Shown here: positions 5,884 to 39,407 of the stretch, one piece after another
How the letters are laid out: each line of letters begins with the position of its first letter
How positions within the stretch are numbered: the stretch's first letter is position 1
Assembly (NCBI GenBank): GCA_011364985.1
Contig: RDOC01000007.1
Location: 1,495-65,494 of the forward strand
Source: Candidatus Thorarchaeota archaeon
GTDB taxonomy: Archaea; Asgardarchaeota; Thorarchaeia; Thorarchaeales; Thorarchaeaceae
Direction of reading: 5' to 3'
Length of the DNA stretch: 64,000 nt
Notes under the pieces: generated by a model
Databases searched by the model: none
The model's input: the letters and a program-made list of their open reading frames with translations, nothing else
Told to the model about the DNA's origin: nothing
Program-made: the position numbers and the translations under genes

Positions 5884-5970
5884 GAGAGAAGTAGAGACGG
5901 CGGTGAGATAGAGCACTCGGGGAACTAGTCCTCCCACATTTCTGAGCGTCCTCTCATCTTTCATTAGACC
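5884..5970 (+). repeat. Copy B of ~85-nt conserved intergenic element
   Basis: GAGAGAAGTAGAGACGGCGGTGAGATAGAGCACTCGGGGAACTAGTCC.. starts 18 nt after the TGA of the CaCA gene. Aligns to copies A and C. Confidence 0.55.
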
Positions 5971-5991
5971 ATCTCGAATGGCCTGCAATGG

Positions 5992-7140
5992 ATGAAATGG
6001 CTAATCTTTCTAACTAATCGCATTTTCGTTTTATTCACAGTCAGATACTTGGATGAGAAGACTGAAAATAGACCAAGCAGTGACATTGTCATGCCAATTG
6101 AGTTCCATCCTATGGGAGCCAAGGTTCTCATATCACATTTACGAAGAGTGCATGACGGGAGCCCTCTATCGGAGCGGGAGATCAATGATATACTAGAACA
6201 ACCGGATATTTATCTCTGGATTTCAGTCTATGATGAATGGATGAAGGGATCTAAATCCGAATTTAGAGATATTCTTTGTTCATTGCACAAAGATTCCATG
6301 AATGACTTGAGTAAATGGGGACAACATATCAATCAAGGACTGAGAAATTCCCTATCCAGGCTTGACGAGCTTGAGCAAGCATTGAACCATCTGACGCGCT
6401 ATGACTGGGGGCTGGCTGCATCAAACACCCTTCAATTCCTCCCCAAAGACACCCCCCTTAATGCTCACGTAATAATGACAATTGATGGCTTTAATGGAGG
6501 TATGTTCCATGATGACAATATGTTTCTCTCTCTAACGATCATAGGTCCGGATACCATGAGCCCTCAGTATTTCACACATGAATTTCATCATATTGGATTG
6601 GGATATTGGTGGGAACGGAACCCTGTCGTCAAGAAATTTGGGCAAGAAAAGGCCTCACGAGAGGCTTGGTTGTTGCGTTTGTACCATTATATGGTCAGTG
6701 AAGGCCTTGCTAACGCATTCTGTTCTCCAGCCATGTTGAGCCAAACTGAACATGACGATGAACAAAATCGAAAACACAACAAGATCATCAGAGAATACGA
6801 CTCACAATTCAATGAGATCTTGTATTCGCTGGAAACCATCCTTGAACAGATTATTGGGCATAGCAATCCCGAAATAACCGAACAATATGAGGAGTTCTCA
6901 CTTGACATGAAAACCCACTACTTGCCCAAGGGCCATTTTCTTTCAGGTAGGATGATTCAAATAATGGATGAATCACCAGCAGTTTCACGTGAAGAAATCA
7001 TCGATCTTGTGAGGGAGCCATTCAGATTCTTTCAATTATACAACCGGGCTGCAAGAGATCGGGGGCATAGGGAAGTTTCCAGGCCTCTTCTTGATTCAGT
7101 CGAAGGAGCAATTCGTTCCATGAAGAAGAACGTCAATTAA
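5992..7140 (+). CDS. Hypothetical protein with HExxH motif (putative zinc metallopeptidase-like)
   Basis: HEFHHIG motif, then a downstream EGLANAF segment. True start may be the ATG at ~6091 (MPIEFHP..). Confidence 0.4.
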   Translation: MKWLIFLTNRIFVLFTVRYLDEKTENRPSSDIVMPIEFHPMGAKVLISHLRRVHDGSPLSEREINDILEQPDIYLWISVYDEWMKGSKSEFRDILCSLHKDSMNDLSKWGQHINQGLRNSLSRLDELEQALNHLTRYDWGLAASNTLQFLPKDTPLNAHVIMTIDGFNGGMFHDDNMFLSLTIIGPDTMSPQYFTHEFHHIGLGYWWERNPVVKKFGQEKASREAWLLRLYHYMVSEGLANAFCSPAMLSQTEHDDEQNRKHNKIIREYDSQFNEILYSLETILEQIIGHSNPEITEQYEEFSLDMKTHYLPKGHFLSGRMIQIMDESPAVSREEIIDLVREPFRFFQLYNRAARDRGHREVSRPLLDSVEGAIRSMKKNVN

Positions 7141-15608: not shown

Positions 15609-16808
15609 TTATTCCTCCTCCATTATTGCCAACTGCGCAAGTATCTTCTCTCTCGTGTCTGCTGGCCGTTCTGGTTTGTATACCAGTCTACCATCTTCAA
15701 TAAGTGATACTGTCACAATCATGGTTTTCTTCTCGCAGCATGAGCATTTCGGCGCAGCGCTCCCATGCTCTATTGCACCTGTGTTTCCACAAATTGGACA
15801 TCGCCATACAATTTTGCGTCCAGAGAACTTTCCTCTCTTTGCAATCGGTTTCCATTTCCCATTCTCATTTAGCGCGACTATATCCATAGCAAAATCAATA
15901 GAAGGCGAATTACTTATCGCTCCTCCAACTCCGTATCCATCAACAGGGGCATTCTGCAATTCTTTGATCTTCTTCCTGTCAAGCCCTCCGCTGACATAGA
16001 TCTTGGTACTGCCGAATCCGCGGATATCTAGCTCCCATCGGACTTCCTCAGTAATTCTGCGAAAATTCCCTCGTCTGCTACTTGGAGTGTCAAGCCTCAC
16101 TCCTAAGAGGCCCTCTACATTTTCGGCTGCGTTCAGGGACTCGACCACCTCATCAAAATAGGTGTCAGCTATCGCAATCCTCGGAACGCCCTTCGGAATG
16201 TGTCTATCAAAGGCTTTCCATGCCTTGGTTTGGTTTCCAAAAGCGATGACCAATGCATGCGGCATTGTTCCAGATGGGGATATGTTAAGAAGCTCCGCTC
16301 CAAGAACGCATGAAATGCCATCACAACCACCGATGTATGCTGCGTATTCAACTTGCGGTGTGATTGCTGGATGGGTTCTTCTTGCTCCAAATGAGAGGAG
16401 AGTTCTATCTCCGGCTGCCTTTCTAATATATGCCGCCCGTGTTGCCATGCCTGATGTATGACAAATGAAGCCCAGCATCGGTGTTTCCAAGACAGCAAAC
16501 TCAGAGTAGGGGCCTTCTATTGATAGAACAGGTATCTTTACTCCATTCTTCCCATGCGGGAAGAATAAGGTCCCCTCTGATAGTCCATAAACGCTAACTC
16601 TCTTGTTTTCAAGGAGCTTAAGGGCGTCATTAACTCCGGCAACTACAGCCCAAGTAGTATCCTCGGGCATTCCTGAAACGGTGACTTCTGCGTGAACTAT
16701 TGGGTCAATGCCTTCCTCTTGAAGAACCTTCAGGGTGTTTTCGAAATAGGTGTCTGTTGTCTTGCCCGAGAGTATTTCTTCCTCTGAGGCAATACGCCAT
16801 GTTCTCAT
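15609..16808 (-). CDS. pncB: Nicotinate phosphoribosyltransferase (archaeal type) with C-terminal zinc ribbon
   Basis: GISCVLGAELLNISPSGTMPHALVIAFG region. C-terminal CPICGN..CSCC. Confidence 0.8.
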   Translation of the reverse strand: MRTWRIASEEEILSGKTTDTYFENTLKVLQEEGIDPIVHAEVTVSGMPEDTTWAVVAGVNDALKLLENKRVSVYGLSEGTLFFPHGKNGVKIPVLSIEGPYSEFAVLETPMLGFICHTSGMATRAAYIRKAAGDRTLLSFGARRTHPAITPQVEYAAYIGGCDGISCVLGAELLNISPSGTMPHALVIAFGNQTKAWKAFDRHIPKGVPRIAIADTYFDEVVESLNAAENVEGLLGVRLDTPSSRRGNFRRITEEVRWELDIRGFGSTKIYVSGGLDRKKIKELQNAPVDGYGVGGAISNSPSIDFAMDIVALNENGKWKPIAKRGKFSGRKIVWRCPICGNTGAIEHGSAAPKCSCCEKKTMIVTVSLIEDGRLVYKPERPADTREKILAQLAIMEEE

Positions 16809-16910: not shown

Positions 16911-17906
16911 CTAGCTAGATATCTGATAGCTTCTGTACCGGTTTTGGCATGGGTACCCAGAGGCGAGGTATATTTTGCCAGTTCCAAGCTCCGCAATCCA
17001 AGACCATATCGTGCCTCCTAGTGGGTCCTTGAGATGCTCGCAAATGCCATTTTCGTGGTCCCTACAGAAATCCTCCGCTTTGCCTAGTGATATTTTTCCT
17101 CGATGCTGATCAAACCAGTCATTGATTCTTCGATAGTAGACTCTTGAACGATCATCTCTGGGCATCTTATCAAAATGTCGAGTACCCTCCAACATGAAGA
17201 AATTGCAAACCGTATTTAGGCCATCTTGTGATTCGAAAGATGATACTCCTCTTGGCGTACATTCGACGCGTGCTGATATTCCTCTCGAATCTGCAACCAA
17301 AAAACCAATCGCCTCCGCATGAGGAATGTTTTCAAGATACTCCACAGCTTCTTCCGTTGTTGAGAAATTGTCCAGAATCCATCTCGTGGCGAAGCTATCT
17401 CTGAGACCTACACCCGTTTTTCCGTCATAGAATGGGACTGAGGCTGTACCAACCGTCAATCCGGCTTCATTAAAGCCATCATAGCAGCCAACATCTGAGA
17501 AATTGAAACCAATTGCAGTGTGTTTCCCAGTTGGCTTTGTTTCAAGCATTATGCCATATTGCAGATCTTCCTCGATCCAATCCATGTAACGAATGAAAAG
17601 AGAATAACCGGATTTCGTATGTTCTCCACTTACAAAGAAGAGGTTACACTCCAATGTCTTTTGAGGAACAAGATGCGTCGCTATCACCTACTCATAATCC
17701 ACATCAATTCCTTCGGCGAATCTCTTGAGTTCTTCCAGAAGACCTGGTGAATGACTTCCGACCTCTATTTCGCAGTTCCGGGCCCTTCTGAGCACGTCAT
17801 CTTTCGGCGCCGAGTATTCAATGACTCCCCTGATCGATTCTCCAAATCTCCTTCCAATTTCATAATATGTCCCAGTTAAGCGCAAGTGCTTCAATCTGAC
17901 AACCAT
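16911..17906 (-). pseudogene. Peptidase C45 / acyl-CoA:6-APA acyltransferase-like Ntn-hydrolase gene interrupted by an in-frame TAG (17688-17690)
   Basis: Track ORFs 17688..17906 and 16911..17687 are in the same frame. The TAG stop of the first abuts the ATG of the second. The N-terminal part ..YEIGRRFG.. and downstream ..KTLECNLFF.. (Cys nucleophile) together make one ~331 aa C45-like protein. Confidence 0.5.
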
Positions 17907-18158: not shown

Positions 18159-19481
18159 TCATCTGCAGGTCTCGTTAGTAGGTTCTTTTAGTATCATATT
18201 CCAAGTACTCAGTGCTCTCTTCTTTTCCTCTATCACAGGGTCCCTTGCTCTCATCAAGGCAAAACCTGCTGCAATGAGCAAGGCTGCAGCCAATACAAAA
18301 GGAAGCGCACCAATGAGACCTGAATGAGAAACGCCTTCAACTGGCGTCGCAGTAAGGTCTGCCAAGAAACCGAGCAAGATTGGACCAGTAACAAATCCCA
18401 TGTCACTAATCATACGATAGAGGCCCATTGACACCTCAAGTTTGTCTTGTGGCGACACATCCGTTACGTATGCAGCTATTGGTCCTGATAGTCCTGTTGC
18501 TGCTCCGTACATCGCCATTACTGCTGTGAAACCGAACATGTCCATCGAGAACGGAATGAGTGTTGTAACAGCAGCAATCGCAAGCAGGCAGAGTATCAGA
18601 GGATTTCTCCTTCCGATTCTATCTGAGATAGTCCCCATAGGAATCATTGTGATAGCCGTTGTTACCCCTGCAACTGTAAGGATTATACCTATCCTAGTTG
18701 AGTCCAAACTTAGATTATTGCCAGCATAGAGTGGGACAAGGGTACTTCGTACTCCGGTCCTGATGAAGAATAGAGTGAATGTTGCGAATGTCGCAAGAAG
18801 AAATGAAGGGGCAGATAGAATCTGCCACACATCACTGAAGATTGATTTTGGCTTGAAGTCTAAAGAAACATACTCGGAGCTTGTTATGTTGGGTAATACT
18901 AGAGTTGGAACGACTCCGAATCCCGAAACCAGCGCATAGGCAAAGAATGGAGCGTGGATGTCATAGATACCAGCAATCAGACCGCCAAATGTGGGTCCGA
19001 AGATGCTTCCGAGGAGAAGCATACCCATGTATAAGCTCATCCATTGCCCACGCTTTTCTTTTCCAGAGATTTGGGCCAGAAACACTGTGGCAGCAGTAAC
19101 ATACATAGCGGACCCTACTCCCTCTATCATTCGGGCAATGACTAAGACGCTGTAATTGGGAGCAATACCGGCCAGTATAGACGATAATAGAATCAGTGTC
19201 AAACCGGTAATCATGATCTTCTTCTTGTTGAACTTCCTTGAGAGAAGACCTGCTGGCACATCAAGAACCATTCTTGTAACGGCAAAGGCAGAGATGACAA
19301 AACCGACCAACGTGTACGAAACTTGGAAGCTCTCTGCGTAATCAGGAAGAATTGGTGCTACCATATTCAAGCCCAGCAGCACTAAGAATGTCACCAGTGA
19401 GAGATTCAATACTGTCCAGATGTTTCCGTCCATTTCTGGATTTTCCATATTCCCGTTGTTAGGCTCGCTTCGGTCTTCCAA
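18159..19481 (-). CDS. MFS transporter
   Basis: 440 aa, 12 predicted TM segments, MFS-like loop motifs (GxLxDRxGRR-like RIGRRNP). Confidence 0.8.
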   Translation of the reverse strand: MEDRSEPNNGNMENPEMDGNIWTVLNLSLVTFLVLLGLNMVAPILPDYAESFQVSYTLVGFVISAFAVTRMVLDVPAGLLSRKFNKKKIMITGLTLILLSSILAGIAPNYSVLVIARMIEGVGSAMYVTAATVFLAQISGKEKRGQWMSLYMGMLLLGSIFGPTFGGLIAGIYDIHAPFFAYALVSGFGVVPTLVLPNITSSEYVSLDFKPKSIFSDVWQILSAPSFLLATFATFTLFFIRTGVRSTLVPLYAGNNLSLDSTRIGIILTVAGVTTAITMIPMGTISDRIGRRNPLILCLLAIAAVTTLIPFSMDMFGFTAVMAMYGAATGLSGPIAAYVTDVSPQDKLEVSMGLYRMISDMGFVTGPILLGFLADLTATPVEGVSHSGLIGALPFVLAAALLIAAGFALMRARDPVIEEKKRALSTWNMILKEPTNETCR

Positions 19482-19537: not shown

Positions 19538-21100
19538 CTAACTGGGTTCTCCTTTCCTGTTCCCCTGCTTTTGATGTTCTTTTGAAGTCGTAGGTTCGGC
19601 CCCATCACTGAGTTGCTTCGCTCTCCTTTTCCTTTTAACAGCTTTCTTGGTTAGTTTCATTGGAGTCTGAAAAGTATGACGAAGTCCATCAATTGTTGAT
19701 ATTGTTCTCACATTTCGTCTTGTTTCAGCTATTATTGCCTCCAACACGACCTTTTCTTCCACCTCTCCTTCCTCCTTGATATATGCCAGCCTATAGAGTG
19801 CAAGAAGTCCCAATAGAACAGAGAAGATGAAAATGAAGTCAAGGCCCATCAGTCGATATGTGTCAATTATCGTCACACCGTGCGGTCCAGTCCAAGTTAT
19901 GGAGAATGAAAGCTCGTATAAGTTGAAGACATCCGCTAAGGTTCCTGCAAGAATGGGTGCGATTGTTCCTGTAAACGCCGCGACCACCCCCTTTGCCGCA
20001 AGATACACCGAAGACTCCCCTCTTGGTGCGATTTTCAGTCCAATGTTGTTTGAGCTGAGATTCACACCAGCAGCCGAGAAGCCTGTGAGAATGTGGATCA
20101 TCACAAGCAAATGGACAACAAAGCCATAGTCCACTGCTATGGAGGAAAACGTCCAAAGAAGTGTTCCTAACATGAAGACTGGAACCGTGACTTGCAGGAT
20201 GGACTTGTTGCTGAATCTGTCTGAGAGCCTTCCCCAAAATCTAAAGAAGATCACACTAGTTAGCTGGGTCAGAGCCGCTAACGCTGCGACTAAGGGGACT
20301 GCGAGGCCCAATCGAAGCAATAGGTAAACTGTGAAGAATGGAGCGGCTAGTCCTGTACTGAATCCCCAAATTGCTGTAAACCACATCAGGTTCCTGTAGT
20401 TTGTGTTCTGAAATGGTTTGGCCATGAGATCTGAATAGCCTAGCTTCTCCTGTGTTGTATGCAACGGTGGCTCAGGGGTAGTGGATGTGTAGTATAGTGC
20501 AGTCATTCCTGCGATGAATGCAAGAAAGAAGATGATTGAATACCCACTTACAATATCATCTGGGTTTGCAGAGGACCATACGCCAATAAAGAATCCTCCA
20601 AGAAGGGATGCGAGAATTCCCACAATCCCCATGATTGCCATTCTTTTAGCAAAGAAGCTTCCAAGTCTATCTTGGGGAACCAAGTCTCTAAGCCATGAGT
20701 TCCAGCTGGGCGCTCCTAGAGCAGTGAAGATTGATTGAATGGTAATCGAACCGAGCAGCAGGACAAGTCCAATCTCGGAAGTCGAAATGAAGGGAATGAG
20801 AGCTAGTAGAAGCACGCCCAATCTGTTTCCAAGCTGAGTAAGGAGATTAAGATTCCGTCGGTTTCTATATTTCTGAATCAGAATCACTGCTGGCATTTGC
20901 AAGAACTGCGTTAACGAGGGAATTGCTGCAAGTATCCCAATCACACTATTCGGTGCACCCAGTAGAATCGCAAAAGCCACCAGAAACACACTCTCTGTAA
21001 GTGTGGTTCTTATCTGAACGGCGGCTCCTTGGCCCACCATCTTTGAGAGAGCCTTCTCTGTTTCTTCAGATGACAATTCAGACACGGGCTCTTGGCTCAT
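19538..21100 (-). CDS. MFS transporter with charged C-terminal extension
   Basis: 520 aa. MFS-like TM pattern. C-terminal K/R/E-rich tail. Confidence 0.75.
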   Translation of the reverse strand: MSQEPVSELSSEETEKALSKMVGQGAAVQIRTTLTESVFLVAFAILLGAPNSVIGILAAIPSLTQFLQMPAVILIQKYRNRRNLNLLTQLGNRLGVLLLALIPFISTSEIGLVLLLGSITIQSIFTALGAPSWNSWLRDLVPQDRLGSFFAKRMAIMGIVGILASLLGGFFIGVWSSANPDDIVSGYSIIFFLAFIAGMTALYYTSTTPEPPLHTTQEKLGYSDLMAKPFQNTNYRNLMWFTAIWGFSTGLAAPFFTVYLLLRLGLAVPLVAALAALTQLTSVIFFRFWGRLSDRFSNKSILQVTVPVFMLGTLLWTFSSIAVDYGFVVHLLVMIHILTGFSAAGVNLSSNNIGLKIAPRGESSVYLAAKGVVAAFTGTIAPILAGTLADVFNLYELSFSITWTGPHGVTIIDTYRLMGLDFIFIFSVLLGLLALYRLAYIKEEGEVEEKVVLEAIIAETRRNVRTISTIDGLRHTFQTPMKLTKKAVKRKRRAKQLSDGAEPTTSKEHQKQGNRKGEPS

Positions 21101-21201: not shown

Positions 21202-22695
21202 TTATCGGTTCAGCTTCTCAAGTTGTTTCAGGGTCCACAAGCCCCTCTCGGTCAATGCGTAGTAGCTTCTTTGTCGCCTCTGATATGTTTGCTCTATCCG
21301 AGTGCTCTTGATTAGCCCGCTACTAGTCAGTTCAGAAAGATGCTGGTATACACTTGGAATTTTGATGCATATTCTGTACTCATCCATTAGTTCTCTCCAA
21401 ATTCCGTACCCATAAGATTCGCCCTCAGAGAGAACTTCAAGAATTCGCATTTTAGTTTGACCCAGTTTGGTAGTGACTCTCCTGCCCTCTACTCTACTAA
21501 GAAGACGTTCCAGCTCTCTTCTGCCTTTAACAAACGTCCTAGCAATGTCGGGATATTTGAGCCCCATTCCAGTTATTGCACATACGACACTCTGGTCTTG
21601 ACTAATCTTCCCCAAAAGAACTAGCCTTTTCAGAGCCGCGATTGTCGTAGCTGAAGCTGGTTCGGCAAAGACCCCTTCCCGTCTAGCTAGTTGTTTGACC
21701 GCATCCAGAATCTCCCTATCAGACACAGAAATTGCTAGTCCATTTGATTCTGCGATTGCTCTTAGCGCAGTGTGCCCACAGAGAGGGCTCTTCACACTGA
21801 TATCATAAGCTATTGTCGATTCGGATGTTGCAGGAGAAACCGTTCTTTCTCCTTTCTCGAAGGCCTCAACGATGGGAGCACAACCGCTAGCCTGTGCGCC
21901 TACGATTCTGGTATGACAAACGTCTATCATCCCAATGGTTTGTAGTTCGATCAATCCTTTCCAAATCATCGATATGTGTCCTCCATTTCCCATAGGGGCA
22001 ATAATCCAGTCTGGGGAAGTCCAGTCTAGCTGTTCACATATCTCATAGACTGTTGTCTTTTCTCCCTCCATAAAATGCGGATTGGAGGAGGCGACGCAGT
22101 GGCTCATCTTGCCTTCTTGTCGAGCTCTTGCTAAGGCCTCATCATGGTCCTTGACAATCTCTACATCAGCGGCATAGGCTAGAATCTGATAGAACTTGCC
22201 TATGTCCACATTTCCCGTCTGCCCTATGAACACCTTGCTCTTAAGACCTGCACGGGCAGCATAGGCAACAAGAGATGCGGCAAGATTTCCCGTGGACCCA
22301 CAACAGACAGAAGCAATTCTGTGTTCTTTGGCTGCAGAGATCTCTACTGCTGTTCCTCGGTCAATAAAGGCTCCAGTTGGATTGGTGGTCTCATCCTTGA
22401 GGAACAGTTCGTCAAGTTCAAGGTCCTTTGCGAGTCCATCGCACTTATGAAGGTACGTCCCTCCTTCTCCTAGAGATATAATGTTGGTCTCGCTTCGGAC
22501 TGGAAGCAGATCGAGATACTTCCAAACACCGGGTCTACGACCTCTTAATCTCCTTGATGTGAAATGACTCTTCGCTCTCTCAAGATCATAGACTACCTCC
22601 AAGGCTCCTCCACATTGTACGCAGGAACTTCGATGGGTTTCCGAGTCATAGACTGACCCACATACCGTACATGTGAAACCAGTTTGGAGAAACAT
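21202..22695 (-). CDS. Threonine-synthase-like PLP-fold protein with N-terminal Zn ribbon and C-terminal PadR-type wHTH domain; canonical PLP lysine replaced (GAFIDRG)
   Basis: CTVCGS..CVQCGG ribbon. LKDETTNPTGAFIDRG..CGSTGN aligns to ThrC NPTGSFKDRG but has I at the Lys position. C-terminal RILEVLSEGESYGYGI..YYALTERG matches the PadR family. Confidence 0.8.
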   Translation of the reverse strand: MFLQTGFTCTVCGSVYDSETHRSSCVQCGGALEVVYDLERAKSHFTSRRLRGRRPGVWKYLDLLPVRSETNIISLGEGGTYLHKCDGLAKDLELDELFLKDETTNPTGAFIDRGTAVEISAAKEHRIASVCCGSTGNLAASLVAYAARAGLKSKVFIGQTGNVDIGKFYQILAYAADVEIVKDHDEALARARQEGKMSHCVASSNPHFMEGEKTTVYEICEQLDWTSPDWIIAPMGNGGHISMIWKGLIELQTIGMIDVCHTRIVGAQASGCAPIVEAFEKGERTVSPATSESTIAYDISVKSPLCGHTALRAIAESNGLAISVSDREILDAVKQLARREGVFAEPASATTIAALKRLVLLGKISQDQSVVCAITGMGLKYPDIARTFVKGRRELERLLSRVEGRRVTTKLGQTKMRILEVLSEGESYGYGIWRELMDEYRICIKIPSVYQHLSELTSSGLIKSTRIEQTYQRRQRSYYALTERGLWTLKQLEKLNR

Positions 22696-22788
22696 ATTCT
22701 TTCATACTTATATATAGGCTCAAGGTTATATATCCTTCTCTCCAGAGCAGATTTGTTCAAGATGGTGGCACCCACAAGAGGATGAATA

Positions 22789-23394
22789 TTGATGGAATAC
22801 TTCAAACCCAAAACACGCAGCTATTCAGTATACCTGTCCTTGTTGGCAGTACTAACAGCCTTAACAACTGTGGCGACGATCATAATTGCCATTCCATTTC
22901 CAACGAGTACTGGGTATCTGAATTTTGGCGACGTACTAGTGATGCTCAGCGGTTTACTGCTAGGTCCTATTGGGGGATTTCTTGCTGGAGGCATTGGATC
23001 CGCAATGGGCGATGTCGCTCTGGGCTATATCCACTTCGCACCGATAACTCTTGTTGTGAAAGGATGCGAGGGGCTGATAGTTGGTCTGCTCAGCATTAGA
23101 GTGCGAACCTCTAAGACTCTTACCTTGTATGATGTTGCAGGACTAATTCTATCGTCTCTTATCATGTTACTCGGATATTTCGTTGCTGAAGTTTTCCTGT
23201 TTGGATATGCGGCCGCTTTAGCCGAATTACTCACACTAAACTGGATTCAAGTCACAGTTGGCTCTATAATCACTGCACTCATTGGACCCACTACAAGAGG
23301 ATTTCTTCAGCAGTTTCTCTACACGCCCGAGAATGAAATACTAGAGGATGGTAGGTCCGCTGAATTTGATGCGGTACCTGAACAGACAACTTGA
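22789..23394 (+). CDS. ECF-type transporter S (substrate-binding membrane) component
   Basis: GYLNFGDVLVMLSGLLLGPIGGFLAGGIGSAMGDVALGY.. is typical of ECF S components (BioY/ThiW-like). No A/T components nearby. Confidence 0.6.
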   Translation: MMEYFKPKTRSYSVYLSLLAVLTALTTVATIIIAIPFPTSTGYLNFGDVLVMLSGLLLGPIGGFLAGGIGSAMGDVALGYIHFAPITLVVKGCEGLIVGLLSIRVRTSKTLTLYDVAGLILSSLIMLLGYFVAEVFLFGYAAALAELLTLNWIQVTVGSIITALIGPTTRGFLQQFLYTPENEILEDGRSAEFDAVPEQTT

Positions 23395-26633: not shown

Positions 26634-28814
26634 CTAGTTTCCTTTATGAAGTCGTTTGTGCAAGTGATTGAACGAAATAACTCCCTTCTTACTTATGTTC
26701 AAATCCAATTCTCTCTCAAGTTGCTTCATTGCACCTGCGAACCAATCGTATTGGATATTGCTACTTGATGCAATTCTAAGTATATTTCCAATGAATCTTA
26801 TGACTGCTTCTTTTCTGGTTCGTGCCATGTTGCTATCGAGGGCAAACCGTAAGGCACGTTCCAAAAGCTGAGCCGGAGTTGAGAGAGAAGTCAATATGTC
26901 CAGTCTTGGCTTACAAAACAACACGAGATCCATGTCAAGAGTGTCTTTCTGTCGAATATGCGGGTTCATCTTGTACTCGCTGTTAACTGGGAATGAAGTG
27001 TTGATTGAGAAACCGCTTTCTCTTAATGCACACAGAATCGCCCACCATGCCTGCAATTTGGAGTGATGGAACGTGAACGCTAGAGTTCCTTCTTCCTTTA
27101 GCACTCTTCGGCACTCTTTGAAGACAGAGACCATAATCTGTTGGTATTTTTTGCTATCCTTACCCATTCCTAAATTTACTACTGCCTCGTTCTCAGGTGA
27201 AACATACTTCTCTTCAAAATACTCGTTCTCAATCAGCAATCTTAGCCAAACGTAGAAGAAATTGGAAAGTTCTGAGTAGTGAACATTGTCAAAATACGGC
27301 GGATCTGTGATTACCAAGTCAACGGAATTGTCAGGAATCTCCGGCACATGCGATGAATCACGACAGAATAGCATGGCGCCTCGCTTTTCCTTGGTGAGAT
27401 GCTGGAAAGTGTCTACAAATTTAGCTTCTATCCTCTCTGTAGGAGTGAAGACTGTACGAATGCGGCCACTTGCATCCTTGTACTTCTCAAAAGGTCTCCG
27501 ACAATACAGCTTCGCTTTGAGATACCGCTGATAGCAGTTAACAAAGGTCCCAGCACCCATATTCGCAGATCCCCAGAAGGAGTTCTCTACCGGTGTTGTT
27601 GTCAGAGGAAATGAGTGATATGTGAACAGATGGTGAAGCTTTCTGTGCGGATAGTTGTAGGGTGTCATCATGTTATTATACTCAAGGCTATTTGACAAAA
27701 TGGTTACGAAAGCATCTCTATACTCATATGATGTTTTTCCAAGAGACTGCTCAACGAAGTTCAATGCAAGAAGCTGGCGTGAACTGAATATCTGAGAATA
27801 GTATCTATATCCGTGTGTTCGCCATCGTCTAGACGAAGACCCCTTAGGAATGCTCTGATGAGGCAGTGTCATGTCTTCCTTCGTTTCTCGAAATTGTCTT
27901 TCGATTTCCTTGATTCTGGAATAGTCCTTAGAATCAGGTGACTTGTAGAGTCGTTTCTTACAACTGGGACACCAATATTCAATCGCAACAATCCTTTCAG
28001 TCATCAGTCGGCTGTTTCCTGCTACTTCAGCAAGCTTCTGCCCTGCTTCGCCGCAATTTGGACAGCAGAACCTTCCGTGGTCGAACGTCCCCTTCATGGG
28101 ATCAAATTCAGCATTGCAGGCGTTGCACGTACAGATTCCGCTCCCCTCCCATGTGTTCAAACTAAAGCAATTGGCGCAAAAGATGGATGCCTTGTTTTCC
28201 TCAGATATAGGCTTGTTTCTTTTCAATCCCTTATTCAGGAGAGTTCTCTTGTAAAGGGGCACTTGCTTGCTGCACTTGGGACAGATGATCTCTCTAATCC
28301 AAAATACATGGAGTCCTTCGCAGTTCTTTCTTCCACATACAACGCAGTCTGTCCGATATATTTCCCGAATGCTTTCCCCAACTGTTTCATTCAGATTGTC
28401 GAAGATGGATGAAAGCTGCTGCAGATCAATGGGTCTAAGGCTTTCGCGTACAATCCAATATGAAACAGGATTTATATCACAGCCTATTACCTTCGCTCCA
28501 AGCCGATTCGCCTCAACGAGAGTTGTTCCTCCTCCCATGAACGGATCGAACACAATGAGACGTTCGAGATTGGGCGGGTGAAAGTACTTACTGGATTCCA
28601 GCAAGCCTCCGGTTTCATCGATTTCGAAGAGACCATCGTCTAATCCTGCAGCCAGCAGTATGATAGACCGGAATTGCGCTCCTGACCTTCTGGCCCACCA
28701 TTTATGCAGCGAATAAACTGGTCGATAGTGTTGACGCTTTCCAGACTCATCCTGTGCAAGCTTACTGATTGTCCTCTCAATCAATGACTTGAACGGTTGC
28801 CTATTTCTTTTCAT
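26634..28814 (-). CDS. DNA (N6-adenine/N4-cytosine) methyltransferase with internal Zn ribbons, DUF1156-like N-terminus
   Basis: N-terminal ..LHKWWARRSGAQFR.. Motif I VFDPFMGGGTTLVEA. Central CPKC..CANC..CTCNAC..CPNC ribbons. Motif IV DLVITDPPYFDNVHY. Confidence 0.75.
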   Translation of the reverse strand: MKRNRQPFKSLIERTISKLAQDESGKRQHYRPVYSLHKWWARRSGAQFRSIILLAAGLDDGLFEIDETGGLLESSKYFHPPNLERLIVFDPFMGGGTTLVEANRLGAKVIGCDINPVSYWIVRESLRPIDLQQLSSIFDNLNETVGESIREIYRTDCVVCGRKNCEGLHVFWIREIICPKCSKQVPLYKRTLLNKGLKRNKPISEENKASIFCANCFSLNTWEGSGICTCNACNAEFDPMKGTFDHGRFCCPNCGEAGQKLAEVAGNSRLMTERIVAIEYWCPSCKKRLYKSPDSKDYSRIKEIERQFRETKEDMTLPHQSIPKGSSSRRWRTHGYRYYSQIFSSRQLLALNFVEQSLGKTSYEYRDAFVTILSNSLEYNNMMTPYNYPHRKLHHLFTYHSFPLTTTPVENSFWGSANMGAGTFVNCYQRYLKAKLYCRRPFEKYKDASGRIRTVFTPTERIEAKFVDTFQHLTKEKRGAMLFCRDSSHVPEIPDNSVDLVITDPPYFDNVHYSELSNFFYVWLRLLIENEYFEEKYVSPENEAVVNLGMGKDSKKYQQIMVSVFKECRRVLKEEGTLAFTFHHSKLQAWWAILCALRESGFSINTSFPVNSEYKMNPHIRQKDTLDMDLVLFCKPRLDILTSLSTPAQLLERALRFALDSNMARTRKEAVIRFIGNILRIASSSNIQYDWFAGAMKQLERELDLNISKKGVISFNHLHKRLHKGN

Positions 28815-38828: not shown

Positions 38829-39407
38829 CTATGTCTTGGAGGCTTCGCCAACAAAGCTACCTGGCGGATATTCTTCTAGAAACTCGCTCTTGAGAATATC
38901 CATTGCCAATAAGTCATGGAACGCCCCTTGCATATACACTGCCTGTCTAAATGCCCCGATTGACTTGAATCCGGCCTTTTCGTAAGCTCTCTTCCCTCGG
39001 TCGTTGAACTCGGCATGATACAGATAGATTGAATTCAACCCCAATACATGAAATCCTATCCAGAGCATCACCTTCACGGCATCTGTTCCATAGCCTTTTC
39101 CCATGTGCTCTTCATTATGAATTGCAATGCCAAGCTCAGCGCGCTGGAATGCCTTGCTAATGCCAAAAAGACTAACTGTACCAAGGAACTTCTTCGAATT
39201 CTTATCCTCAACCGCCAGAACTATCTGTCCGTCTTTCCAAGGATCATACTGCGTGGCTTTCTCTAGCCAGACCCTTTCTGCATTCTCTGAACATGGCAAT
39301 GCAGTCCCCAGAAATCTCCTCATTGCAAATGTGTTCCAATGTTCTAGTATCTTGTTCAAATCGGACATTTCAAGGGCACGCAGGCACACTTTCTCGCCAA
39401 AGTACAT
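38829..39407 (-). CDS. GNAT family N-acetyltransferase (RimJ/RimL-like)
   Basis: 192 aa. GNAT motif A region (GKGYGTDA). Confidence 0.75.
   Translation of the reverse strand: MYFGEKVCLRALEMSDLNKILEHWNTFAMRRFLGTALPCSENAERVWLEKATQYDPWKDGQIVLAVEDKNSKKFLGTVSLFGISKAFQRAELGIAIHNEEHMGKGYGTDAVKVMLWIGFHVLGLNSIYLYHAEFNDRGKRAYEKAGFKSIGAFRQAVYMQGAFHDLLAMDILKSEFLEEYPPGSFVGEASKT

Follow-up and report, generated by a model that had tools for sequence, protein, structure and literature searches.

A lysine-less threonine synthase-like protein fused to a PadR winged helix in Archaea: a candidate vitamin B6-responsive regulator paired with a transporter gene

The stretch of DNA analysed here, hereafter the window, comprises 64,000 nucleotides (64 kb) of contig RDOC01000007.1 from a Candidatus Thorarchaeota archaeon. 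At positions 21202–22695 of the minus strand, it carries a gene for a 497-residue protein in which a threonine synthase (ThrC)-like domain devoid of the Schiff-base lysine is fused to a PadR-type winged helix-turn-helix (wHTH), as assigned from the open reading frame, Pfam matches and an AlphaFold2 model. Divergent from it lies a gene (22792–23394, plus strand; PF07155) for the S-component of an energy-coupling factor (ECF) transporter of the PdxU/HmpT family, which is the proposed target. Sequence comparisons indicate, with good confidence, that the fusion gene encodes a ligand-sensing one-component transcription regulator of the S-component gene. To the fuller reading, in which this pseudoenzyme regulator would respond to a vitamin B6 vitamer and control both itself and the transporter through a conserved palindrome, we assign a probability of roughly 55%. 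The domain architecture, the family-wide loss of the lysine and its single origin, the retained cofactor anchors, the pairing of the two genes and the conservation of the palindrome were established in this work and are laid out below.

Domain architecture and loss of the Schiff-base lysine

The Pfam PALP family (PF00291) matched residues 73–376 (21568–22479, minus strand; E 8.6e-66, 222.7 bits), the fold-type II pyridoxal 5'-phosphate (PLP)-enzyme domain that we propose as the sensor on the basis of this match, the ThrC hits and residue mapping. The PadR family (PF03551) matched residues 418–489 (E 8.6e-12, 45.3 bits against a gathering cutoff of 27) within a C-terminal wHTH spanning residues 413–496 (21208–21459, minus strand), for which the PadR-family structures 1XMA, 7QZ7 and 5DYM were retrieved from the PDB and which is connected to the ThrC-like domain by a linker of ~35 residues. 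Within the 497 residues, no GntR or aminotransferase domain was matched in Pfam at E ≤ 1. The closest solved structures were the threonine synthases 2ZSJ, 2D1F, 6CGQ and 1UIM (E 1e-53 to 6e-60, the best value being that of 2ZSJ; 36–42% identity). The AlphaFold2 model, computed from a 52-sequence alignment, had a mean predicted local distance difference test score (pLDDT) of 92.6 and a predicted TM-score of 0.83, with low confidence only at linker residues 405–409, and matched ThrC structures in Foldseek with TM-scores of 0.87–0.88 and a root-mean-square deviation of ~2.2 Å.

At the N-terminus, a zinc ribbon was assigned from cysteine column conservation to residues ~7–31 (22603–22677, minus strand), with C9, C12, C25 and C28 invariant or near-invariant across 52 family members and with weak Pfam DUF7129 and rubredoxin-like matches over residues 7–32. 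The same ribbon is found in lysine-bearing relatives and is best read as ancestral to the parent ThrC clade. Thus, a preliminary description of this DNA, which had recognised a ThrC-like core, a C-terminal PadR domain and a retained zinc ribbon at 21202–22695, is borne out for the first two by the reading frame, the PALP and PadR matches and the four ThrC alignments; the ribbon is likewise present, but it is shared with the lysine-bearing relatives and so reflects no special retention in the fusion.

In all four structural alignments, the segment NPTGAFIDRG of the window protein pairs without gaps with NPTGSFKDRG, so that the column of the Schiff-base or catalytic lysine (K61 of Thermus thermophilus ThrC) falls on Ile111 (codon at 22363–22365, minus strand). 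In fold-type II enzymes, this residue anchors the cofactor as a Schiff base and also acts as the general base. The K-to-I exchange within the SFKDRG motif (AFIDRG) that had been read from the sequence alone is therefore confirmed. A merely displaced lysine, named in the preliminary description as the outcome that would overturn its reading, was not found: there is no shifted or compensating lysine, the lysine columns of the fusion family (100, 167, 213, 246 and 380) being equally conserved in lysine-bearing relatives, and no lysine column is specific to the fusion family.

The orthologs, which the same description had suggested checking, carry the same kind of substitution. The 120 closest proteins in a collection of 5.8 billion sequences all lack the lysine (Ile in 103, Leu in 17) and all combine PALP with PadR; where named, they derive from Thor-, Loki-, Hod-, Odin- or Sifarchaeota or from Promethearchaeota. 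An exhaustive HMMER search of 1.84 billion representatives was condensed to 150 representatives clustered at 50% identity. The wHTH-bearing ones, of ~440–500 residues, have Ile (19), Leu (19), Val (7), Met (5), Arg (5), Thr (3) or Asn, Ala, Phe or Ser at the lysine column, and only two of them, P0198 and P0225, have Lys, which is thus replaced in 62 of 64 diverse fusion representatives. In contrast, Lys occupies the column in 71/71 relatives of ~400 residues without a wHTH. A sister branch, composed mostly of Bathyarchaeia along with Odin-, Freya- and Promethearchaeota, carries Arg at this position in 119 of 120 members. Such a loss goes far beyond chance.

A neighbour-joining tree was calculated from the PALP domain only, after masking of the lysine column, and inspected through an unrooted split test. 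One split divides all 64 fusions from all 81 lysine-bearing non-fusion proteins; the fusion side further holds two lysine-less proteins without an aligned wHTH, namely P0166 (truncated, 362 residues) and P0147 (519 residues). From this single split it follows that the fusion arose once and was maintained in at least three major archaeal lineages, and the sequences accordingly place fusion and lysine loss in one monophyletic group of single origin. The lysine of P0198 and P0225 could be a relic of the ancestral catalytic state or the product of reversions, and these two proteins could be bifunctional enzyme-regulators.

Residue positions were mapped through the 1UIM alignment in T. thermophilus ThrC numbering, with roles that we take to be those given in the structural literature on that enzyme. 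Cofactor-holding F60 corresponds to F110 (kept in 57/62 members), G86 and N87 to G136 (60/62) and N137 (54/62), and T317 to T375 (60/62), while the phosphate loop corresponds to G236 (59/62) and G238 (62/62), within GNGGH in the window protein. Presumably, the phosphate of O-phosphohomoserine is bound by T88, N154, S155 and R160. The first is replaced by L138 (Leu in 42/62), the second by A202 and the last by F208, in a column that is hydrophobic family-wide (Phe 20, Leu 16, Tyr 8, Ile 6; 50/62); the S155 position is S203. The PALP domain is highly conserved, with a mean column identity of 43% over 52 diverse members. Among these, the D112–R113 pair directly following the missing lysine is invariant, and Y169 and G166 are family-specific.

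The ThrC-like domain is under purifying selection, with its cofactor-anchoring residues kept, the pattern expected of a pocket preserved for a PLP-like ligand and not for O-phosphohomoserine chemistry. O-phosphohomoserine or threonine as the ligand is disfavoured, since the T88-to-Leu, N154-to-Ala and R160-to-Phe exchanges replace phosphate-binding residues. Among the ligands put forward in the preliminary description, O-phosphohomoserine is accordingly set aside on account of these contacts, and PLP or another B6 vitamer is favoured by the PdxU/HmpT family membership of the partner.

The annotation given by NCBI, JGI and NCBIfam, that of a genuine threonine synthase, is extremely unlikely to be correct. 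The protein does exceed the curated cutoffs of two equivalog models (PRK08197, 317.8 bits versus 303; TIGR00260, 215.4 bits versus 167.1), and databases name its homologs threonine synthase. Against this, the catalytic lysine is absent rather than shifted, the contacts to the substrate phosphate are lost, and a wHTH fusion, a conserved candidate operator and a transporter pairing are all foreign to ThrC. The two model cutoffs, as we read them, do not exclude this fusion family, which is judged non-catalytic from its residues. No second ThrC homolog was found within the window.

The PadR domain, the partner gene and the shared promoter region

In the model, helices α1 (413–423), α2 (429–440), α3 (446–458; the recognition helix, with VYQHL) and α4 (483–496), along with wing strands β1 (462–469) and β2 (475–481), complete the α1-α2-α3-β1-β2-α4 topology of a wHTH, with mean pLDDT values of 83–98 per 10-residue block over residues 411–497. 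The best-conserved C-terminal residues among the 52 members are G429, Y430, Y450, Q451, H452 and L453, of which H452 is invariant and Y430, Y450 and Q451 are conserved in at least 90%; the wing consensus GxRxRxxYxLT includes Arg474 and Arg476. PadR proteins have this topology and a Tyr/Tyr/basic DNA-binding signature, represented by Tyr20, Tyr42 and Lys67 in Bacillus subtilis PadR (PMC5728393). Y430, Y450 and Arg474/476 match that signature, the equivalence being one of motif position and not of structural superposition. The assignment of the C-terminal ~80 residues to a PadR winged helix, made previously from the letters alone, is hence upheld by PF03551, the full topology and the signature. 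As in PadR subfamily 2 proteins such as LmrR and Pex, a single wHTH with an appended C-terminal helix and Tyr/Tyr/basic residues goes with a palindromic operator, here a candidate one (PMC5728393); unlike in these proteins, the wHTH is itself appended to an enzyme-derived domain of ~400 residues, where the effector would be expected to bind rather than at the PadR dimer interface.

The partner is a membrane protein of 200 residues (PF07155, E 1.1e-33, 117.1 bits versus a cutoff of 26.7). Its only sequence match in the PDB is chain S of 4HZU (E 4e-16), the Lactobacillus brevis ECF S-component HmpT/PdxU2, with which pyridoxamine was identified as the co-purifying substrate (PMC4860826). PdxU and PdxU2/HmpT, both of COG4720/PF07155, are two of just three characterised prokaryotic B6 transporters (PMC9997740), and membership of the same family suggests that the partner may transport B6 as well. 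NCBIfam yielded sub-threshold matches only: TIGR04002 scored 53 bits, with a cutoff of 120, and the folate and riboflavin S-component models were weaker. No EcfA, EcfT or pdx genes were found in the annotated parts of the window.

At the positions of the HmpT pocket residues E41, W76, H84, Q87, Y120, S136, N140 and Q143, all 14 partners compared read [E/D][F/Y]-K-E-Y-E-N-Q. They are identical to HmpT at Y120, N140 and Q143, and at Glu41 in 8 of the 14 (Asp in the window partner), and all are aromatic at Trp76. By sequence, the 14 partners form one orthologous group, with a pocket related to that of HmpT yet distinct from it. At the His84 position, the invariant Lys of the partners might conceivably react with pyridoxal to give a Schiff base, which is pure speculation.

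In 13 of 15 informative contexts from Asgard archaea, Bathyarchaeia and Nitrososphaerota, the regulator gene has a gene of PF07155 as its direct neighbour, in three arrangements. The pair is divergent in the complete Thorarchaeota genome, a second Thorarchaeota genome, a Hodarchaeota contig, a Lokiarchaeota contig, and Bathyarchaeia, Nitrososphaerota and Nitrosopumilales genomes, as well as in two distant representatives with Asn and Thr at the lysine column. In the Arg branch, it is convergent at one locus (L089), and the S-component gene lies immediately downstream and co-directional in Candidatus Bathyarchaeum tardum and in an Odinarchaeia contig. In one further context the S-component gene is 3 kb away, and no S-component neighbour was detected at L017 and L009. 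An adjacency that survives three gene orientations is strong evidence of functional coupling. A pattern scan of genome contigs allowed any residue at the lysine column, and most of the 80 loci listed are canonical ThrCs, which were used as negative controls; fusion genes among them are only L005–L008, L012 and L017. L009 was aligned over residues 9–449, and no PadR domain was detected in it.

Between the divergent genes of the window lie a 12-bp palindrome, CTTATATATAGG (22707–22718; consensus CCTATATATAGG), which ends 11 nt upstream of the regulator ATG and represents the candidate operator, and, at a fixed spacing of 6–7 nt from it, a TATA-like element (22726–22733; TTATATAT on the plus strand, ATATATAA on the regulator strand). 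The palindrome is the sole match with at most one mismatch in the window (~55 genes). It recurs in 10/10 divergent pairs from Asgard archaea, Bathyarchaeia and Nitrososphaerota (four exact, five with one mismatch and one with two), always ending 2–23 nt before the regulator ATG. By comparison, 789 kb of control loci contain no match at ≤1 mismatch and 15 at two mismatches. Anchored alignment of the 10 loci gave the consensus aTATATAAg-N6-CCTATATATAgG, the intergenic regions of 52–149 bp being otherwise unalignable, and conservation across phyla extends to the CC/GG flanks of the palindrome. An account of the intergenic inverted repeats as back-to-back TATA boxes only was revised after this cross-phylum comparison.

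Judged by standard archaeal geometry, with a TATA centre near −26, the TATA-like element probably serves the regulator gene as its TATA box and may be bidirectional, which would set the transcription start 3–4 nt past the palindrome. The regulator mRNA would then be leaderless or short-leadered, and the palindrome would occupy positions of about −15 to −4, the classic site for archaeal repressors that block recruitment of RNA polymerase. It could also serve as, or overlap, the TATA box of the transporter gene.

The palindrome is lacking at L012, L017 and L009. In the Nitrososphaerales locus L017, positions 5900–5992 retain degenerate promoter elements only (CATATAGAAG-N6-CCTATATGTCGC) and no S-component gene turned up within 6 kb; the pairing may have been lost there, or the partner may have diverged beyond tblastn detection. 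At two Arg-branch loci (L090:8404–8447 and L089:9213–9260), another palindromic core, (T/A)AGTTATAACT(A/T), is found directly upstream of the S-component gene, and AGTTATAACT is a possible branch-specific operator, as seen in these two loci. A metagenome scan for regulon members with the 14-mer AGCCTATATATAGG was uninformative because the collection is so large that a 14-mer occurs by chance: none of the 80 loci listed encodes the regulator or the S-component.

Proposed mechanism and nature of the signal

We infer from the features described above that the protein binds DNA at the palindrome, in which direction it regulates and what its ligand is. In the proposed mechanism, the ThrC-derived fold-type II domain, deprived of the lysine and of the substrate-phosphate contacts, would act as a reversible small-molecule sensor, and the PadR winged helix would bind the palindrome CCTATATATAGG, presumably as a homodimer. 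With the palindrome placed between the TATA-like element and the regulator start, inside the promoter region shared with the divergent S-component gene, binding would keep polymerase from being recruited and thereby repress the regulator's own promoter, and the transporter gene might be controlled through competition with the TATA-binding protein or from the upstream position. The signal would be a non-covalently bound B6 vitamer, be it PLP, pyridoxamine 5'-phosphate (PMP) or pyridoxine 5'-phosphate (PNP), such that B6 uptake would be tuned to intracellular B6. The idea of a pseudoenzyme sensor coupled to a transcription factor, already advanced in the preliminary description, gains support from the family-wide and monophyletic loss of the lysine, the kept anchors, the PadR signature, the palindrome and the partner gene.

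Among conceivable ligands, a B6 vitamer appears the most likely, at about even odds, because the pocket keeps the PLP anchors without the covalent lysine and because the proposed target belongs to a family of B6 transporters. A further reason is that the bacterial PLP sensor PdxR, whose regulons comprise the B6 transporter gene pdxU along with pdxST and pdxK, controls pdxU, and that the MocR class to which it belongs is absent from Archaea (PMC5320631).

Several observations weigh against this reading, and three of them concern the signal. HmpT residues His84, Gln87 and Ser136 are replaced by Lys, Glu and Glu, respectively, invariantly in the 14 archaeal partners; the members of PF07155 are diverse in specificity, the Pfam name itself referring to riboflavin; and no pdxS, pdxT or pdxK gene for B6 biosynthesis or salvage was seen beside the regulator in any locus. 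The regulator and its S-component target might then be as described, with the signal and cargo being another micronutrient or an amino-acid-like or phosphorylated metabolite, and with PLP perhaps a permanent co-ligand that forms an aldimine with the effector. In GabR, GABA (γ-aminobutyric acid) forms such an aldimine with PLP. The invariant pocket that departs from HmpT at 3/8 positions, the absence of a linked B6 gene and the sub-threshold NCBIfam matches of the partner speak for this alternative, as do the exchange of the lysine for a hydrophobic residue or Arg and the family-specific Y169, which suggest a remodelled pocket. We nevertheless consider it unlikely: the nearest characterised relative of the partner is a B6 transporter (PMC4860826, PMC9997740), and the sensor keeps precisely those residues that anchor PLP and has lost those that contact O-phosphohomoserine.

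A further point against a purely regulatory role is that P0198 and P0225, nested within the Arg sub-branch, keep the lysine (NPTSSFKDRS and NPTNSFKDRA), so that some members could still catalyse. Along with the high conservation of the PALP domain, this would fit a bifunctional enzyme-regulator in the manner of archaeal RbkR or bacterial BirA, in which catalysis would proceed without the lysine, through non-covalent PLP or no cofactor, and the wHTH would exert autoregulation; RbkR provides the archaeal precedent for an enzyme-plus-HTH vitamin regulator (PMC8305020). However, the residues that take the place of the lysine are chemically unrelated (I/L/V/M/T/N/A/F/S/R), which argues against one conserved alternative catalytic mechanism. 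The lysine, anchor and general base in one, is moreover missing from practically all members, and the contacts to the substrate phosphate are gone, so that this option is very unlikely.

The remaining points bear on the operator. The core of the palindrome, TATATATA, is TATA-like and could be a conserved basal promoter element instead of a regulator site; 12 bp is short for a PadR dimer; and the palindrome is lacking in the Arg branch. If the wHTH did not bind DNA, the protein could act in the cytoplasm as an accessory or gating partner for the S-component, or could store or chaperone a B6 vitamer, and the palindrome could be no more than an unusually strong bidirectional TATA element. Such a role would agree with the TATATATA core, and gene adjacency alone cannot separate regulation from physical partnership. 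It is rendered highly unlikely by the PadR DNA-contact residues and recognition helix, which are better conserved than the rest of the C-terminal domain (H452 invariant; Y430, Y450 and Q451 in ≥90%), and by the CC/GG flanks, which are conserved across phyla around a site that has no other such occurrence in the window. A B6-responsive pseudoenzyme regulator acting on its own gene and on the transporter gene therefore remains our preferred reading.

Related systems, neighbouring genes and annotation

The MocR regulators (PdxR, GabR and TauR) resemble the fusion protein in that a sensor domain derived from a PLP enzyme is joined to a winged helix. They consist of an N-terminal GntR-type wHTH followed by a fold-type I aminotransferase domain, whereas in the fusion protein an N-terminal zinc ribbon and a fold-type II ThrC domain precede a C-terminal PadR-type wHTH, and the lysine is missing. 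The aminotransferase domain of MocR proteins keeps the PLP-binding lysine. The resemblance is convergent, not homologous. With ThrC, the fusion protein shares the fold, clear homology and conserved cofactor anchors, and the zinc ribbon is common to the nearest lysine-bearing relatives; it differs from ThrC in the missing Schiff-base lysine, the replaced phosphate contacts and the added wHTH. The S-component partner is in turn linked to HmpT/PdxU2 and PdxU by PF07155/COG4720 membership and set apart by its pocket at the H84, Q87 and S136 positions.

Closest in logic are RbkR (riboflavin kinase plus HTH) and ThiR (ThiN-like domain plus HTH), in which a domain from vitamin enzymology is coupled to a helix-turn-helix that controls vitamin genes in Archaea. 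ThiR was reportedly described as such an archaeal regulator by Rodionova and co-workers in 2017. Folds, HTH type and domain order differ from those of the fusion protein, and RbkR is still catalytically active. The description of RbkR as an archaeal enzyme-derived vitamin regulator is taken from a passage of PMC8305020 that cites PMID 28073944. No description of a ThrC–PadR fusion was found in the full-text literature, a scope outside which most subscription journals fall, so that a prior mention is possible; within this scope, the earlier impression that this regulator type had not been described holds. That the family constitutes the first archaeal transcription factors responsive to B6 (PLP/PMP), with a fold-type II enzyme turned into a reversible sensor by loss of the lysine, independently of MocR/PdxR, conserved together with operator and PdxU-like target, and mis-annotated, is a tentative proposal that we hold at somewhat less than even odds.

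Another ThrC fusion emerged from the same set of homologs. P0181, P0186 and eight similar representatives of 610–633 residues are lysine-bearing ThrC-like proteins with the same zinc ribbon and, at the C-terminus, a LeuA allosteric/dimerisation domain (PF08502, E ~1e-27). They represent a separate fusion and are presumably enzymes under allosteric control.

Directly downstream of the regulator gene and on the same strand, the window contains two genes for major facilitator superfamily (MFS) transporters (19538–21100 and 18159–19481, minus strand), separated by gaps of 101 bp and 56 bp; one is Bcr/CflA-like and the other resembles DHA-type efflux proteins, and both might be co-transcribed with the regulator. 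They are probably outside the conserved module, as the arrangement was not seen at other loci. A quinolinate/nicotinate phosphoribosyltransferase-type gene of NAD cofactor metabolism (15609–16808, minus strand) and a gene of the acyl-CoA:6-APA acyltransferase family, an N-terminal nucleophile (Ntn) hydrolase (16911–17687, minus strand), lie ~4–6 kb from the regulator and have no evident link to the module. On its other side, positions 26634–28814 (minus strand) encode a 726-residue protein with split N6/N4 DNA-methylase motifs, a weak DUF1156 match at the N-terminus and a second weak methyltransferase match, which may be a stand-alone or fused methylase of the restriction-modification or defence type.

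At several loci (Thorarchaeota, Hodarchaeota and one Arg-branch contig), GNAT acetyltransferase genes occur one or two genes away from the S-component gene. The complete Thorarchaeota genome has, after its S-component gene, a gene for a second PadR-domain protein of 278 residues. The coordinates of these GNAT or second-PadR neighbours are L001:6463–7299, L001:5947–6438, L002:6118–7270 and L089:9812–10345. The GNAT gene of the window, at 38829–39407, is far from the module.

Public annotation of the family is systematically misleading, since the NCBIfam model NF004170/PRK05638 ('threonine synthase', 442 positions) describes Arg-branch fusions and the window protein passes PRK08197 and TIGR00260. 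Residues 8–492 of the window protein align with positions 3–441 of PRK05638, wHTH included. As a member of the Ile/Leu branch, it scores 275.9 bits, below the cutoff of 421, whereas the Arg-branch protein P0167 scores 451.6 bits and exceeds it. Sequences with Arg in place of Lys that are captured by this model very probably cannot perform catalysis, and PRK05638 thus seems to spread an incorrect enzyme name to non-catalytic regulators of Bathyarchaeia and of some Asgard archaea. The name threonine synthase is attached to hundreds of 90%-identity clusters from metagenome-assembled genomes (MAGs) of Asgard archaea, Bathyarchaeia and Nitrososphaerota, and, if our reading is true, metabolic reconstructions that count these fusions would overstate threonine prototrophy in the respective lineages. 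A cultivated carrier of the Arg branch exists in Ca. Bathyarchaeum tardum (PMC10477458); the papers on this organism and on Bathyarchaeia MAGs make no mention of pyridoxal, ECF transporters or threonine.

The design principle, an enzyme-derived sensor plus a winged helix, is known; the fusion itself is real, conserved and apparently undescribed. To our knowledge, Archaea have no known regulator that responds to B6. Transporters rank with the most poorly understood components of B6 metabolism (PMC9997740), and the module, if correctly read, would bring a candidate regulator, its operator and a transporter together within ~2.2 kb and provide the first candidate for a B6-responsive regulator in Archaea. 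It would also be a case of convergent evolution, with a cofactor sensor derived from a fold-type I enzyme in Bacteria and from a fold-type II enzyme in Archaea, in which removal of the covalent lysine would be the step that turned a tight cofactor site into an equilibrium sensor.

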